A stretch of DNA of 64,000 nt from an uncultured Planctomycetaceae bacterium (GTDB lineage: Bacteria; Planctomycetota; Planctomycetia; Planctomycetales; Planctomycetaceae). Each line of letters opens with the position of its first letter. Position 1 is the first letter of the stretch. A model generated the notes under the pieces. That model was not told where the DNA came from and made no database searches. It saw only the letters and a list, made by a program, of their open reading frames with translations. The stretch covers positions 192,001 through 256,000 of the forward strand of contig CAWFGE010000021.1 in NCBI GenBank assembly GCA_963815195.1, given 5' to 3'. Shown piece by piece: positions 10,744-61,221 of the stretch. Position numbers and translations under genes: made by a program.

Positions 10744-11076
10744 CGGTCTCAGCGATTGGAGGAATCGTAGATTGGGGACGGGACTTACGTTGCCAACGTG
10801 TATGATGGGCAATCGGATGAAGAACTCAACCAGAATTTTGCGAATCTCCGCAAGATGGCATTGATGCGGACGCCATCGCAGGCCGCATTGGAAAGCCACA
10901 ATGGAACGGATTTGCCGGGAAAATCCCGGTATCCTGTTCATTATGCCGATCCTACCATCCGCTGGCGGAAAGCCATCCCTAAAGACCCCAGGATTCTCAA
11001 GTCCCCCCGTTTGTCTTTCCGATTTGGTTTAGCAATGGGGCAATTCGTCTGGGCATTTTCCTGAGGGAGTTTTTGC

Positions 11077-11360
11077 ATGTCGCAATCGTCGCCGGAGTCG
11101 GTCTGCGGGCGCTCCAACACCTGCGCGAACGGCTGGAGAAGTTGAAGAACTCATGGACGGTATTACAAGGAAGGGAGGAGGACTCCGATTTCTCGTTTCA
11201 CAAAGAATGGCAAAGCAGGTGGTTGCGGATTGTTTCCGGCTTGCGGGATCTCGACGAGGCGCTGAATTGCCGGTGGGGTCGGAAAAACTGGAGGGGGCAT
11301 CCCGAGATTTTGCGATTTCCACCCGCGGAGGATGGCGTCCTCTCAATTGAGCCGTCTTAA
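11077..11360 (+). CDS. Small hypothetical protein, probably frameshifted just after the start
   Basis: GAGGGAG RBS before ATG 11077; open frame continues as the 11073-11360 ORF. Confidence 0.35.
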
Positions 11361-11468
11361 TCCTCCCGCTGAGGATGACAAAGCGAAAGGATGGCCGTCC
11401 CTGGCCGAAAACGGCTTCCCTTGCCGTTGAGGGGATCGCATCACAGCGGATTCGAGATGTGTAAATGC

Positions 11469-11646
11469 AAAAAGCCCTCAAGAAAGGAGGGGTTCAAGAC
11501 AACCAACATCACCTTGAGCGATGGGGAACTGATTTGCAGAGTGGGTCAGGCTGCTAATCAGGGGACCTTCCACAGACTGGTTGTTGAACACCAAACCCTT
11601 TCCTGAGGGCTAGGCTGGGTAAAGGAGTGGGTGGCTTTCCCACAAT
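11469..11646 (-). ncRNA. Candidate structured non-coding RNA (rod with central bubble; 6S-like or novel sRNA)
   Basis: Nested stems 11596-11611/11473-11488, 11578-11589/11492-11505, 11551-11561/11529-11539 and side hairpin 11507-11523; G-U pairs work only on the minus strand; U-run at 3' end; sigma54 box immediately upstream. Confidence 0.6.
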
Positions 11647-11656
11647 GACATAGGCA

Positions 11657-11672
11657 AGCAGGTCCCATGCCA
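11657..11672 (-). promoter_or_regulatory. sigma54 (-24/-12) promoter
   Basis: Minus strand TGGCATGGGACCTGCT = TGGCA...GG-N10-GC. Confidence 0.65.
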
Positions 11673-11779
11673 TTAAGGGGATCAATTGAAGATTTACACG
11701 AAACAAACGCCGTAATATCTTTTTTAACAGTCAGTTATGTAAAATAGCTTTGCCAAAAAAATCTTAGGGTTCGATGGAT

Positions 11780-11860
11780 TTTCGGCGCCGAAACTTGCTT
11801 TTTCGGCGCCGATTCTGTTTGATGGGAGAGATCGGCGCTCGGCGCCGAATTTTCGTCGCC
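11780..11860. promoter_or_regulatory. Repeated palindromic sites, candidate enhancer (UAS) for the adjacent bEBP
   Basis: TTTCGGCGCCGAAA 11780-11793, TTTCGGCGCCGATT 11801-11814 (21-bp spacing), TCGGCGCCGA 11839-11848. Confidence 0.55.
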
Positions 11861-11880
11861 CCCTTTTGTTGGGTTCATCG

Positions 11881-14800
11881 ATGCTCTTCCATCGAAAATG
11901 GACATTGATCGTCATCGGATCCGCCGTGCTGGTGTATTCGATTATTGTCCTCTGTTTCATCGTCACCACGCCCGATGTCGGCTTGCGGGTTTTGCTTTCG
12001 GAGGCGGACTCTTCTCAACAAGCCCCGGTCCAGGGGATCCGCATTCACGCGACCCCGCATTTGATGGCCAGCGTCCCCAAGGGACAGAAATTGACACCGC
12101 AAGTCGGCGACCGTCTATTGCAGTTGGGCGGTTTGCCCACCCACAGTTTTTTGGATTTCGCCTGGAAGATGGATCGGCTGCGGAATGCGAAACCTAAAGA
12201 TGCTCCTCTGGCGCAGGGAGAAGATTTATGGCGGGCCGTGGAGAAATTTGTGGGCCCCTCCGAGCCTCGTGGAGTATTCGGGCGGGGAACGCTGGATCAG
12301 AGCCGAGTTTTCGCGGCCCGCCTCCGGGGGGAAGCCGGGGCCACCCTTCACCGCCTATCTTCAGGTGCAGTCGCTGCCTTTGAGCGAAGTGTTTTTGAGC
12401 TTTATCTGGTTCGCGCTGCAGCTCGGGTTTTTCATGCTGAGCGCTTTGTTGTGCTGGAACCGGCCGTTTGACCGGGCCGCGCGGGTGCTGTTTGGTTTGG
12501 GGATCGTTGGATTGGGGGCCTTCATCGCGGGGAATCATTGGTGGGTGATGGCTGCGAACCGCTGGCTGATCGTGCCTTGCGCGACGTGCGGGATTCTGCT
12601 GCCGGCGGTCTTGTTGCATTTCTTTTTGGTGTTTCCTCGCCCCAGGCTGTTTCTGCAAACGCACCGCGTGCTCTCGATGTTTGGCGTGTACCTGGTGCCG
12701 ACGCTGGCGGTCGCGGCCACGATGATGGTCGTGTGGCTCACCGGCCAAACACACGATCCCGGGGATCCGGCCGACGTCGCCGAGCTGGTTCCTCTCCTGG
12801 ATGGATTGCGATACGGCATCTACGGCTACTTCTGCGTGGCGGCGGTCTACTTCTTGCTTTCGCTGTTCGTGCTCTGGCAGAGCCTCGGGCAGTCTCAACA
12901 GGCCAAAGAGCGTCAGCAGCTTCGCTGGATTTGGCACGGGGCGACGCTGGCTTCCCTCTTTATCGCCATCACCTTGGTGCTCGCCTTCAAGAACCGCGGG
13001 GACTTTGCCTTGGGCAGCGGACGGGTTCCGATGTTCCTCGCGGCGGTGTCCTTCATCGTCGCGTTTTCCGTCGCGATGGTTCGGCATCAGTTAATGCAGG
13101 TCGATCAGATCATCAGCCGGAATATGCTGTATTACGTCGCGAGCCTGGGGCTCACCGCTGTCATCAGCCTGATGATCGCGCTCAGCATTCTCGTGCCGCA
13201 GTGGTTCAACCTCACCTTGTCGACGCAGCAAGCCCTCACGGTCGCGGCGGTGCTCACCCTTTCCGTGATTTTGCTGCTCTGGCTCCGGGATTTGTTCCAG
13301 CAGATGATCGACCGGCAGTTTTTCCGCGACCGCTACCGCCTCGACAAGGCGCTCGAGCGGATTCAGCATTCCGTGGCAAAGCTCAGCGATCCCGAGGCGA
13401 TCGCCCAACTGTTTCTCGGCTCCTGCCGGGATGTGTTGGGTGTGGAGCGGGGGGCGCTTTATCTTCGCCCGGCCACTGATGAGCCGTTCCGGTTAATGGC
13501 TCTCGCGGGCGACGGCCCGGCTTCGCTGCCTCTGGAGGGGCCGTTTTTGTCCACTCTCAAAATGCGGTCCGTCGACGGCTGGCTTTTGCCGTCCCTGCTT
13601 CCCTTGGATCCGCCGTTTTTGTCGACGCTCAAAGACCAGGGCAGCCTGCAGCGGATCACGCCGGGTTCCAGGAGCGAGCTTTCCGCCGAGCAGGCCTTGC
13701 TCTGGGAACTCGACGTCGATTTGGTGCACGGTTTGGAATCCTCCGAGGGCGTGGCGGGGCTGGTGCTCTTGGGGCCGAAGCGGCACGCGATTTCGTTCAC
13801 GTCCGAAGACCTCACCTTCTTAAACGCCCTGGGGCAGATTGCCAACGTAGCGATGTACAGCGCCCAGGTGGTCGATCAAAACATTTCCCGCTTGAACGAG
13901 GAGTTGGAGCTCAAGCTGGAAAAAATCGCCGAGCAGCAACGGCAGATTCTCGCTCCTTCAAGCCCAGTTGACGCAAATCAGCGATGAGCCCGCGCGGACG
14001 CCCGCGGCCCGGCAAGCGTTTCGTCGGGAGGATTGCAAAGGCAGCAGCCCGGCGATGAAGAAAGTCCTCGACACCGCGCGAAAGGTCGCCGCCAGCGAGA
14101 CGTCGGTGCTGCTCCGGGGGGAAAGCGGGACCGGCAAAGAGGTGATCGCCCAGGTGCTCCACAACAACAGCTCGCGGGCGGGCCAACCGATGATCCGCGT
14201 GCACTGCGCTTCGCTGTCGCCGAGCCTTTTGGAAAGCGAATTGTTCGGCCACGTCAGAGGCGCGTTCACCGGGGCGCACCAGGACCGGGTCGGGCGGTTT
14301 CAAGCCGCGAACGGCGGCACGCTGTTTCTCGACGAAATCGGCGACATTTCCCTGGAAACGCAAATCAAGCTGCTGCGGGTGCTGCAGGAACGGTGCTTCG
14401 AGCCGGTCGGCAGCGTCGAAACGGTGCGCGTCGACGTGCGGCTCATCACGGCGACGCATCAGAATCTCGAAGAACTCATCCGGGCCGGCAGGTTTCGCGA
14501 CGATCTGTTTTACCGGCTGAACGTGATCAGCATGGAACTCCCCCCGCTCCGAGAACGGCGGGAAGACATCTTGGAACTGGCGTTGCACTTTTTGGGGCGG
14601 GCGGCCAAGCGGCTCGGGAAAACGCTGACGCACATCGACGAGGAGGCTTTGGAGCTTTTGGAACGCTATCCGTGGCCGGGCAACATCCGCGAGTTGGAGA
14701 ACATCATCGAGCGGGCGGTCGTCCTGGCCGAGGGCACGGTGCTGACTCCCACGGAATTGCCCGCGGAATTGATCTCCGCCAAAGGCCGGAAACGGCCGGA

Positions 14801-15098
14801 CTCCGCGCCGGCGACGCCCTTCGTGATTCAACAAACCGCCGCCCTGAGACGCGACGATGCGGTCACGAAATCCGCCCGAAGCGATGCGGAGAATCACTCC
14901 GCCCGCGAGGCGGCGTTCGCCAAGTCTTCAACAAAACCGGCGGTTGCAAAAGCCTGCCTGCGAAGCGTCGAGGTCGAACGGGAAGAACTCCTCGCCGCGC
15001 TCGATGAATCGGGCGGCAACAAATCCCAGGCCGCCAAGAGACTCGGCCTGCCCCGCAGCACGTTCTTCAGCAAACTCAAACGCCACGGGATCGCATGA
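11881..15098 (+). CDS. Membrane-anchored sigma54-dependent activator (multi-TM sensor, GAF-like, AAA+, Fis-type HTH); frameshifts near 12190 and 13960
   Basis: GESGTGKE, ESELFGHVRGAFTGA, LFLDEIG, WPGNIRELEN, GNKSQAAKRLGLPRSTF; many TM segments upstream; three overlapping ORFs. Confidence 0.8.
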
Positions 15099-38203: not shown

Positions 38204-38788
38204 GTAGGGTCCGCTGTGCGGACCGTTCGGATTGATTGCCGTATGACAGCGGCTGGGTGGCACTGTCAGCCCGGGTTATTGTTGAGAGTCTTTCGGCGGG
38301 TGGCTGGGGTCAGTTTGGCGGGAATTGCCTGGAATCAAAAGAACGTTGAATCGACAAACTGCCCCCAGCGATGCGCGTATTGGCTCGTCTGGGGGCAGGC
38401 TGCCGATACCGTTGCCTTCTGATTCAATACCCGTTCCGGCAGCCTGACCCCAGCCACCCCGGCGGGGTGGCACTGTCAGCGGGGGTTGTTGCTAACAGTC
38501 TTTCGGGTGCCACTGGCAACTTGTTGCCAGTGCTTTCCAGCAGCATGGAATCGGGGGGCGTTTCAAAACTCGATTGGTTCATCCGATTCACACTGGCAGG
38601 CAAGCTGCCAGTGGCACCCGGCGTGCACCGCCCAACCATACGTTCCTCATTCGATGATAGCAGCCAAGCCAAGTCCAAAATGGCAGGCAGGAGCCTGCCC
38701 TACTACTGAGGTCTTTTCAAGAGCCTTCCTCAATTCCCCCAATGAACCGAGTCCAAAATGGCAGGCAGGAGCCTGCCCTAGACGAACT
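38204..38788. repeat. Mosaic of nested REP/REPIN-like elements, including the composite B+A module at 38460-38788
   Basis: GTAGGGTCCGCTGTGCGGACC; GGGTGGCTGGGGTCAG..CTGACCCCAGCCACCC; GGGTGCCACTGGCA..TGCCAGTGGCACCC; family A. Confidence 0.8.
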
Positions 38789-59595: not shown

Positions 59596-61221
59596 TGTAA
59601 CGGCTCAGTTCGAACTGGAATTTCTGGCTGGTTGGGTTAGTCTATTCTTATGAGAGGACCGACCCATGAGCAACAGCAAACGACGTCATTTTACGCCCGA
59701 GCAGAAAGCCGAGGTTGTCAGGCGGCATCTGTCGGGGAAGGAACCCGTCTCCAAACTCGCTGAGGAGCTTGGGGTGCAGCCGAGCCAGATTCATGCGTGG
59801 GTGAACCTGGTTCTGGCGCAGGCGGAGCGGGCATTCGAGAAGTCTCAGCAGAATGGACGCGCGCGGACGGACAAGGTCAAGGACCGCCGCATCGAACAGC
59901 TCGAAGGTAAGATCGCCGACAAGAACGAAGTGATCGCCGAGTTAATGGAGGCGAACGTTCGCGCAAAAAAAGAGCTTGGGGAACTCTAAAAGGAGGCTGG
60001 GTTCCCCACGACACGCGCGACGAAATCGTGGATTACATCACGTATTGGACGGACCGCGCCGAGATTCCCGCCAAAACCCTTTTGGGTTGGTTGGAACTGG
60101 GCACGAGCAAGTACCACTCGTGGAAAGACCGCTACGGAAAAGCCAACGAGCACAACGGGAAGATTCCCCGGGATCATTGGCTGGAGGATTGGGAGAAGGC
60201 GGCGATCGTCGACTATTTTGACCAGCATCCCTTGGAAGGCTATCGCCGGCTGACGTTCATGATGCTCGATGATGACATCGTCGCCACAAGCCCGGCGACG
60301 GTGTATCGCGTGCTCAAAGCGAACCGGCGATTGGACCGCAGGAAGTTCTCGCCGTCCAAGAAAGGCACAGGCTTCGTGCAGCCCTTAAAACCCCACGAAC
60401 ACTGGCACATCGACGTGTCTTACATCAACGTGGAAGGCACGTTTTACTACCTGACCAGCGTCTTGGATGGCTGCAGCCGGGCCATTTTGCACTGGGACCT
60501 CAAGGAGTCGATGACCGAACAGGACGTGGAAGTTATTCTGCAAAAAGCGATCGAGACCTACCCCGGCGAATCGCCGCGGATCATCTCGGACAACGGGCCG
60601 CAGTTCATCGCGCGGGACTTCAAAGAGTTCATCCGCCTCGTGGGCGCCACACACGTGCGGACCAGTCCGTACTATCCCCAATCGAACGGCAAGATCGAAC
60701 GTTGGCACGGAAGTTTGAAGTCCGAATGTATCCGGCCGAGTTGTCCGGCCAACGTCGAGGAAGCCCGGCGAAAGATTCAAAGCTATGTGGATCATTACAA
60801 TAATGTGCGGCTGCATTCGGCCATCGGCTATGTGACGCCCGCCGATAAACTGGCGGGCATCGAACAGGAGATCTTCACCGAACGCGACCGCAAGTTGGAA
60901 ACCGCCCGAACGCGCCGTCAGGCCGCCCGGCAATTCGCGCGACAGGAGGTTGCTTGATGACAAGCCGCATGGCACAATCGAATGCGACCTGGGCGGAGGA
61001 TACGGCTCTGCTGAGGAGCACCCGGAGCGCCGCCCCAGGGGCCAAGACCGGAGGCGGGATCAAGCCCCTTCCCTTGATCCCGCCCGTTTCGAAAACCCTC
61101 CGGGATTGGCACCAAAGCGAAAAACCTTCGCGGCAGGATGCCGCGAAATCCGCGACAGGAGGTCACCTTCCACTGACTAACACCAACACGCCCAAATTCC
61201 ACTTACCGCTGAACCAGGACA
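59596..61221 (+). mobile_element. IS3-family insertion sequence with 4-bp target duplication GGCG
   Basis: TG...CA ends with imperfect IRs; GGCG at 59592-59595 and 61222-61225. Confidence 0.9.
59666..60957 (+). CDS. IS3 transposase OrfA/OrfB, programmed -1 frameshift
   Basis: OrfA HTH 59666-59989; A7G slippery site 59965-59972; OrfB WHID, SDNGPQF, PQSNGKIER DDE motifs. Confidence 0.9.

Follow-up and report, generated by a model that had tools for sequence, protein, structure and literature searches.

A 64,000-nt stretch of the genome of an uncultured Planctomycetaceae bacterium (the window; contig CAWFGE010000021.1, positions 192,001 to 256,000) carries on its minus strand, within positions 11466-11672, what we are highly confident is a real, sigma-54-dependent gene for a structured small RNA (sRNA). 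An earlier reading of the letters alone, which we call the original prediction, had proposed here a regulatory RNA under sigma-54 control, of no family that it recognised, next to the gene of a membrane-bound bacterial enhancer-binding protein (bEBP), and comparison with relatives strongly supports that core proposal. These sequence comparisons show a real gene that is both conserved and structured; the architecture of its promoter and candidate enhancer is conserved too, as is its linkage to the activator gene, and it has no tie to a downstream gene. The RNA family is new, though its regulatory kind is known, and the one-component membrane activator that serves it is unusual. To the whole statement, that a stand-alone sigma-54 sRNA gene forms a circuit with the divergently encoded activator and acts in trans by base pairing, we would give roughly even chances.

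Promoter, repeat cluster and fold of the RNA

The sigma-54 -24/-12 box, TGGCATGGGACCTGCT, is in place at 11672-11657 on the minus strand, with its -12 GC at 11659-11658, which makes the start near 11646 given by the original prediction a reasonable one. The strict motif TGGCA[CT]N6TGC[AT] occurs 74 times on both strands of the 8.87-Mb host genome, so that a box at exactly this position is not expected by chance. Among the 44 distinct loci of this RNA that we compared, 40 have a sigma-54 box at most 150 nt upstream on the correct strand, as against none of 132 control segments, and the distance from the promoter to the conserved core ranges from 27 to 138 nt in relatives. The genome also has rpoN.

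Some 110-190 bp upstream of the box, at 11782-11848, lies a candidate enhancer (upstream activating sequence) composed of TCGGCGCCGA palindromes and GCGCCGA half-sites. With seven half-site matches it is the sole cluster of at least four within 150 nt in the whole genome, and the RNA promoter, possibly together with the divergent activator gene, would therefore be the sole evident direct target of whatever reads it. Across the 44 loci the heptamer GCGCCGA, counted in both orientations and in many cases part of the palindrome TTCGGCGCCGAA, averages 5.5 sites per 500 nt upstream and 0.07 downstream, with at least two upstream sites in all 44 loci and at least three in 43, most frequently 150-300 nt upstream of the conserved core. 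A conserved -24/-12 box before a non-coding unit, combined with a bEBP gene and upstream repeats, is the pattern of the Qrr-like class of sigma-54-dependent sRNAs.

The predicted sRNA is about 180 nt long and runs on the minus strand from 11646 to a U-run at its 3' end (11646-11466); we infer both ends from the sequence. In the minimum free energy (MFE) structure it is a rod. Its closing helix, P1, pairs 11596-11611 with 11473-11488 over 16 bp, including two G-U pairs, and the 3' arm together with the U-run that follows directly (11473-11469) makes a predicted intrinsic terminator at 11469-11488; a simple terminator scan also marks 11491-11475 plus CTTTTT. Inside P1 come another helix, interrupted by a 2-nt bulge (11592-11577 paired with 11506-11490), a side hairpin, AUCGCUCAAGGUGAU, at 11507-11523, which the alignment consensus shows to be preceded by the semi-conserved UUCCCCAUCGC, and an apical hairpin at 11529-11561, CUGAUU-A-GCAG-CCUGACCCACU-CUGC-A-AAUCAG. 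A variable 5' hairpin (11627-11643) is absent in some relatives. Between it and the rod, at 11612-11621, stands the single-stranded motif UACCCAGCCU, a candidate seed whose CCCAGCC columns are 91-100% conserved.

All features listed in the original prediction (the box, the nested helices, the U-run, the side and apical hairpins, and the CUCCUUU and GGAA motifs) are present on the minus strand, with CUCCUUU at 11627-11621 and 11489-11483 and GGAA at 11640-11637, 11603-11600 and 11571-11568. The 182-nt minus-strand RNA has an MFE of -71 kcal/mol (z -4.99), which none of 200 shuffles equals; the plus strand of the same segment reaches a z of -2.17, equalled by 4 of 200 shuffles. The stronger minus-strand fold accords with the strand of the promoter, and so do the G-U pairs of the closing helix, which had been put forward as strand indicators: there are two in this copy, and they are common in P1 of the relatives, for example 11 at the first pair.

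Two other readings of the segment were rejected. A small-protein gene would leave a conserved open reading frame (ORF), and none was found in the RNA across loci, where the longest ORFs have 3 to 52 aa. A dispersed repeat, such as a miniature inverted-repeat transposable element, would recur; this genome has just one copy of the segment, so that the repeat-element reading under which the original prediction would have failed does not apply, and in relatives the RNA is found once per genome in 108 of 109 positive genomes, with a tandem pair in the remaining one.

Conservation of the RNA in the Planctomycetaceae

In BLAST comparisons with 61 relatives, three same-genus genomes (G001-G003) conserve the segment. 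In each of them the matching stretch extends to 11469; in G001 it sets in at 11645, in G002 and G003 only at about 11620-11622. The apical part of the RNA is matched in another twelve genera. A covariance model, R1, built from the closing helix and the apical hairpin only (21 pairs), scores this locus at 128.3 bits and matches 109 of 151 Planctomycetaceae genomes, in 71 of 92 genera, with one copy each except for the tandem pair (genome G073). Within a class-wide sample, R1 finds the RNA in 30 of 35 genomes of the family and in none of 115 genomes from 16 other families. Five complete family genomes that are negative with R1 all have the activator, and in four of them a diverged copy of the RNA adjoins it, scoring 24.9-46.6 bits with the search filters off.

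Scanning named genomes for exact 18-mers yielded 77 loci, 60 of which are full-length R1 matches and one a match cut by a contig end. These 61 come from entries titled Planctomycetaceae, Planctomycetales, Planctomycetota, Planctomicrobium or Maioricimonas, the exceptions being three metagenome-assembled genomes (MAGs) labelled Kuenenia and one Tepidisphaeraceae. The remaining 16 are weak matches of 20.5-25.3 bits. Thirteen lie in other phyla, and these we take to be chance. Of the three that are left, L093 is on another contig of a Planctomycetaceae MAG in which a full-length match was also found, L136 carries the label Phycisphaerales, and L073 spans R1 with 23.8 bits in an Actinomycetota MAG.

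The tandem locus of G073 (L278:383-670, contig G073:C58) has two sRNA modules arranged head to tail behind a single sigma-54 promoter, with a weak terminator ending the first.

The original prediction had named covariation as a check, and the closing helix stood up to it: 10 of 11 pairs show compensatory changes, and the helix is kept across 71 genera. In an alignment made independently of R1, with MAFFT and RNAalifold from 16 sequences of 13 genera, the closing helix was recovered with compensatory changes at 10 pairs, and each of the 16 sequences folds individually as a rod. What they share is an optional 5' hairpin, ACCCAGCC as an unpaired stretch, a closing helix whose base is CCCU/AGGG, a rod of genus-specific sequence, an apical hairpin with GCAGCCUGACCCACUCUGC, and then UUUCCCCAAUCGC and a U-run. 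Over the 44 distinct sequences, 10 of the 11 modelled P1 pairs have changed on both sides, with 96% of cells paired. All five structure measures exceed 500 of 500 shuffles, counts that should not be taken as probabilities, since fitting the alignment to R1 biases it in favour of the modelled structure and the genomes share ancestry; the independent alignment agrees with the model-fitted result. The 21 modelled pairs are 91% paired in register and 37-46% paired once their partners are shifted by 1-3 columns. The interior arms, which R1 does not constrain, vary in sequence by genus and keep their complementarity in all 44. The fold z is below zero at 44 of 44 loci (median -2.75) and below -2 at 29, and a U-run follows P1 at 31 loci by a strict criterion. 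Predicted lengths in the relatives range from 129 to 270 nt.

Sequence conservation is concentrated in unpaired, C-rich stretches. CCCAGCC is exact in 34 of the 44 loci and differs by one base in the other 10, and it is kept in both tandem copies of G073 and in a distant homologue from another family (f12, see below). The mean unpaired probability is 0.66 for the UACCCAGCCU motif and 0.70 for the apical motif. In 8 of 34 loci ACCCAGCC lies within 10 nt of the predicted 5' end. The apical GCAGCCUGACCCAC (11554-11541) has columns that are 86-100% conserved and is present in full in 33 of 44 loci, while its loop reads GACCCA in 43 and GACCCAC in 37. Both G073 copies share ACCCAGCC and the GACCCAC loop and differ in their apical stems; G004 has lost the apical motif and kept the 5' one. 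A third unpaired C-rich motif in the consensus is UUCCCCA. The motifs to which the original prediction had drawn attention fared differently: neither the two anti-Shine-Dalgarno CUCCUUU motifs, which are genus-specific, nor the three GGAA motifs are in the family consensus, where a partial 'gg' 5' of the apical hairpin alone reaches 60%.

The RNA falls outside the described families. Rfam 15, searched with the 6S model RF00013 included as the original prediction had proposed, gave no match at gathering level anywhere in the window, and with E values up to 10 allowed it gave three chance matches in 11000-12200, none overlapping the RNA. Our literature searches turned up nothing on this RNA and no described regulatory sRNA from Planctomycetes, nor did we find one in Rfam 15. 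The available text of a 2025 survey of sigma-54 regulons treats protein-coding genes and has 'small RNA' and 'non-coding' 0 times (PMC12316311). The sole planctomycete motif listed by Weinberg et al. (2010) is Rhodopirellula-1, a candidate structured RNA that has a cis-regulatory annotation there and is connected with a transposase overlap check; its alignment rows (AACAA..GAU..GAAC...) are unrelated to the sequence described here, and it is not the same RNA (PMC2864571).

The divergent activator and the exchange of promoter cargo

On the other side of the repeats, at 11881-15098 on the plus strand, is the gene of a membrane-GAF-AAA+(sigma-54)-HTH_8 activator. The original prediction had set the RNA beside a membrane bEBP gene, and this arrangement, with the two genes divergent, was found in 14 of 15 loci and then in 10 of 10 larger loci. 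In those 10 relatives the activator is a single ORF of 1012-1074 aa, with the following Pfam domain order: an N-terminal region of about 500 aa that has no family assignment, GAF, Sigma54_activat, AAA_lid_14 and HTH_8. GAF is detected at E values up to 0.1 in 7 of the 10 orthologues and lies above the cut-off in 3. We read the N-terminal region as membrane-embedded from its hydrophobic stretches and one weak, sub-threshold match to ABC2_membrane_5. A PDZ domain in this sensor region, suggested by an Atlas feature search (score 0.94, from shares of cluster members), was not confirmed by Pfam and was dropped. No pairing between the RNA and the 5' region of the activator gene was seen by eye.

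In the genome studied here the activator gene is spread over three frames (11881-12249, 12263-13891 and 13980-15095), with breaks near 12249-12263 and at about 13948. The gene is intact in G001 (1048 aa) and G003 (1055 aa) and split once in G002. Assembly error and real decay are both possible; the second break falls in the linker between GAF and AAA+, so that, if real, it would leave a free-standing AAA+-HTH protein.

Downstream of the RNA there is no comparable constancy. The window's downstream ORFs are shared with the closest relative only. Among 10 relatives the downstream genes are mutually unrelated (CinA, molybdopterin-related genes, IlvD/Edd, a methyltransferase, MoaA, a pyrroloquinoline quinone (PQQ) propeller protein, a PSD1-family protein, PTPS and others), and in 4 of the 10 the first of them is convergent. 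This variation argues that the RNA is a stand-alone unit.

The activator reaches further than R1 does. Its sensor part was found in 27 of 27 genomes of the family and also in other families: 28 of 28 genomes of f4, 5 of 5 of f6, 2 of 2 of f7, 3 of 3 of f14, the single genomes of f12 and f15, and 3 of 24 of f5. It was absent from the genomes of f3 (0 of 17), f8 (0 of 5) and f9 (0 of 2). Of 14 loci outside the family (L264-L277), 10 have as divergent neighbour a gene for an alpha/beta hydrolase of about 290 aa (Abhydrolase_1 confirmed in 10 of 10). This arrangement occurs in f4, f5, f6, f7 and f14, in most cases with GCGCCGA repeats between the two genes; a strict sigma-54 box stands on the hydrolase strand in 6 of the 14 loci, and looser boxes were seen by eye in f4 loci. 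Some of the hydrolase genes are preceded by long structured leaders, in which R1 found no match. Instead of the hydrolase, the loci of f12 (16.8 bits, E 0.008) and f15 (11.1 bits, E 0.14) carry an RNA that has UACCCAGCCU or UACCCAAA together with a rod and a U-run. In the genome studied here the hydrolase has no close homologue. Taken together, these loci provide evidence, from gene order and sequence, that the cargo of the promoter has been exchanged between bacterial families, an RNA in some and a hydrolase gene in others. We regard this as a case of regulatory rewiring, in which the same activator and the same enhancer-promoter layout face a hydrolase in five sister families and an RNA in the Planctomycetaceae.

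Proposed mode of action and its rivals

Our proposal for how the locus would work is as follows. The divergently encoded activator of about 1,000 aa would act from the GCGCCGA cluster on the sigma-54 promoter and, since an N-terminal membrane region, a GAF domain, an AAA+ domain and a Fis-type HTH are joined in one protein, would convert a membrane or envelope-associated signal directly into RNA synthesis. The RNA would be made as a long rod whose closing helix and U-run terminate transcription, with two conserved C-rich elements left unpaired: GACCCAC, in the loop of the apical hairpin, and UACCCAGCCU, which immediately precedes the rod on its 5' side. It would then act in trans, its ACCCA-type motifs pairing with G-rich sites in mRNAs and changing their translation or stability. 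Help from Hfq is probable because hfq is present in this genome; with the U-tailed terminator, this gives the RNA the features expected of an Hfq-dependent sRNA. Base pairing is in our view the most likely mode, through the conserved C-rich motifs and not through CUCCUUU; ribosome-binding-site pairing by the latter, as offered in the original prediction, is disfavoured by the restriction of both motifs to the genus.

Several results weigh against this proposal. Around 7,627 start sites of this genome, defined crudely from ORFs, the complements of the three conserved motifs are not enriched; an apparent enrichment of the third (55 against 12), which was due to its ATG, vanished with controls that kept CAT (control range 16-98). 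The 11-mer GGGTCAGGCTG, complementary to the apical motif, is not above its reversed control in five complete relatives, and in G022 this 11-mer is confined to the RNA gene itself. No Shine-Dalgarno-centred enrichment was seen for the ACCCA motif. The best individual site, 11 bp over the ribosome-binding site and AUG of a PSCyt-family gene, is lost in the orthologues of G001-G003, and we rejected this gene as a target. The apical GCAG/CUGC stem is invariant on both strands in most genera, which fits a protein that recognises the folded hairpin at least as well as a seed. To these must be added the leaning of the 44-sequence alignment mentioned above, and the possibility that the circuit is altered in this genome if the frameshifts in the activator are real.

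The other candidates from the search are quickly told. In all, 45 candidate target regions were listed, 12 of them annotated (a non-ribosomal peptide synthetase, DUF1501, PSCyt-family, an insertion sequence (IS) integrase and others), and they have no common theme. A 229-aa candidate was rejected because its orthologue is missing in two of the three same-genus genomes, and GGCUGGAU at the 3' end of 16S rRNA, one mismatch from the complement of the seed, was judged not compelling.

The rival that deserves most attention, though we think it rather unlikely, is that the RNA binds a protein: its two ACCCA sites, one single-stranded and one in an invariant loop, would be read by a sequence-specific, perhaps dimeric protein that the RNA sequesters or delivers in the manner of CsrB/RsmZ or CrcZ, with another motif. 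The near-invariance of the apical stem strands and the 11-nt loop, while every other helix covaries freely, would suit such a role, as would the occurrence of the motif twice per RNA and four times at the tandem G073 locus, and the searches described above yielded no base-pairing target. There would also be room for altered specificities among nine CsrA paralogues above the Pfam cut-off. On the other hand, two sites are few for a sponge, and no candidate protein is linked to the locus; moreover, G004 keeps the RNA beside the activator with the apical motif lost, and in G015 and G073 the apical stem changes while GACCCAC stays, which suggests that the loop bases matter rather than a fixed hairpin shape. 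A canonical CsrA/RsmA sponge working through GGA motifs, one of the options of the original prediction, draws on the same paralogues and on the three GGAA motifs of this copy, and we give it very little credence: GGAA is not conserved in the family consensus, and the many GGA loops that mark CsrB/RsmZ are missing.

The remaining readings, like the GGA sponge, are largely excluded. It is conceivable, if improbable, that the promoter serves, or once served, a downstream gene, so that the rod would be a conditional terminator in a cis-acting leader or attenuator, or the functionless remnant of an orphaned leader. The hydrolase that faces the activator in 10 of the 14 loci of other families, in some cases behind a long structured leader, lends this some appeal, as a coding gene may have been lost from the same promoter in the Planctomycetaceae. 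It is hard to reconcile with the downstream genes of the 10 relatives, which include no conserved same-strand gene and begin with a convergent one in 4, with the failure of R1 in the hydrolase leaders and of the search for a close hydrolase homologue here, and with motifs and a covarying structure kept across 71 genera, unlike a remnant. As for a 6S-like mimic of a promoter for RNA polymerase holoenzyme, also raised in the original prediction, we give it next to no credence. A rod of about 180 nt with internal loops does resemble 6S RNA, but RF00013 does not match it even at E values up to 10 and finds the canonical 6S RNA of this genome elsewhere (C10:181837-182023, minus strand; 48.9 bits against a gathering score of 46.4). 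Nor is there the large conserved central bubble typical of 6S: the internal loops differ by genus, and what is conserved is the 5' tail and the apical loop.

A bolder version of the protein-binding reading seems to us quite unlikely, though worth stating. The RNA would be the single dedicated output of a membrane one-component activator and would capture an ACCCA-reading protein, perhaps a CsrA paralogue of changed specificity, instead of base pairing; it would have taken over the promoter that drives the hydrolase in sister families, and the same protein or RNA might engage an arm, GGUGGCUGGGGUCAGGCUGC, of the palindromic repeat described at the end of this section. If true, this would be a titration system like Csr/Rsm with a new recognition code. 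The nine CsrA (PF02599) paralogues above the cut-off are at C8:497348, C23:426310, C17:134073, C12:695295, C10:388099, C12:163720, C15:785737, C17:180334 and C20:149140, and there is a tenth, weaker one.

Among well-studied systems, the closest in layout is Vibrio Qrr/LuxO: a sigma-54 promoter, a dedicated bEBP gene adjoining the sRNA gene and divergent from it, an sRNA that is apparently the main output of the pathway and has a terminator and an unpaired region under conservation, and more than one copy in some genomes. The two differ in most other respects. There is no similarity in sequence or structure and no Rfam match to the Qrr model; Qrr RNAs have about 100 nt and four short stem-loops, whereas the present RNA is a rod of 130-270 nt; and LuxO is a response regulator with a phosphorylated receiver domain, whereas the activator here is a one-component membrane-GAF protein. 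GlmY, with GlrK/GlrR (QseE/QseF), and CrcZ, with CbrA/CbrB, are sigma-54/bEBP-dependent sRNAs that titrate a protein and do not base-pair, and are thus precedents for the protein-binding rival; they are other RNA families with other motifs (A-rich Hfq/Crc sites, RapZ binding) and two-component inputs, and they have no Rfam match here. The RsaE/RoxS-type C-rich sRNAs of Firmicutes likewise display several unpaired C-rich motifs in loops and linkers, comparable to ACCCAGCC, GACCCAC and UUCCCCA. They are not homologous, belong to another phylum and have another regulator, and their C-runs pair with the G-runs of Shine-Dalgarno sequences, whereas the motif here is ACCCA.

The interest of the present locus lies in a family-wide, single-copy sRNA with its full control module conserved: a membrane one-component activator, genome-unique repeats, a sigma-54 promoter and a terminator. 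Because the module is conserved, it can be tested directly in cultured members of the family, and the titles of the matching entries include Planctomicrobium and Maioricimonas isolates. Identifying the targets of the RNA would reveal what the conserved membrane sensor controls.

Two dispersed sequences in this genome are complementary to the RNA. The first lies upstream of a multi-copy IS integrase gene (rve), which occupies 60028-60957 on the plus strand of the window and has at least six more copies (C1:4468, C8:576463, C12:1128993, C15:152941, C16:106131 and C19:266341): AAAAGGAGGCUGGGUU contains a 9-nt complement of the sRNA segment ACCCAGCCU, which overlaps GGAGG, a Shine-Dalgarno-like sequence. 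This is probably a peculiarity of this genome.

The second is a near-palindromic element of about 180 nt at 38288-38466 of the window (minus strand), with further copies at C8:153850-154047, C14:167558-167755, C16:176425-176622 and C19:87007-87204, one of the five aligned copies being truncated (C19) and four full-length; there are eight 17-mer matches here at up to one mismatch, and G001 has 17 matches. The element folds at -100.6 and -99.8 kcal/mol on its two strands (z -8.6 and -7.5) and matches nothing in Rfam. The 5' arm, GGUGGCUGGGGUCAGGCUGC, is invariant and complementary to each of the two conserved sRNA motifs, with 12 of 12 Watson-Crick pairs to GCAGCCUGACCC. The sRNA might target the element in some genera, the two might share a protein site, or the complementarity might be coincidental; the element was found in 21 of 121 family genomes, and this patchy distribution argues against a family-wide target of the sRNA. 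Its inner stem covaries between genera (CAGGCUGCCG, CAGGUUGCCG, CAGACUGCGA).

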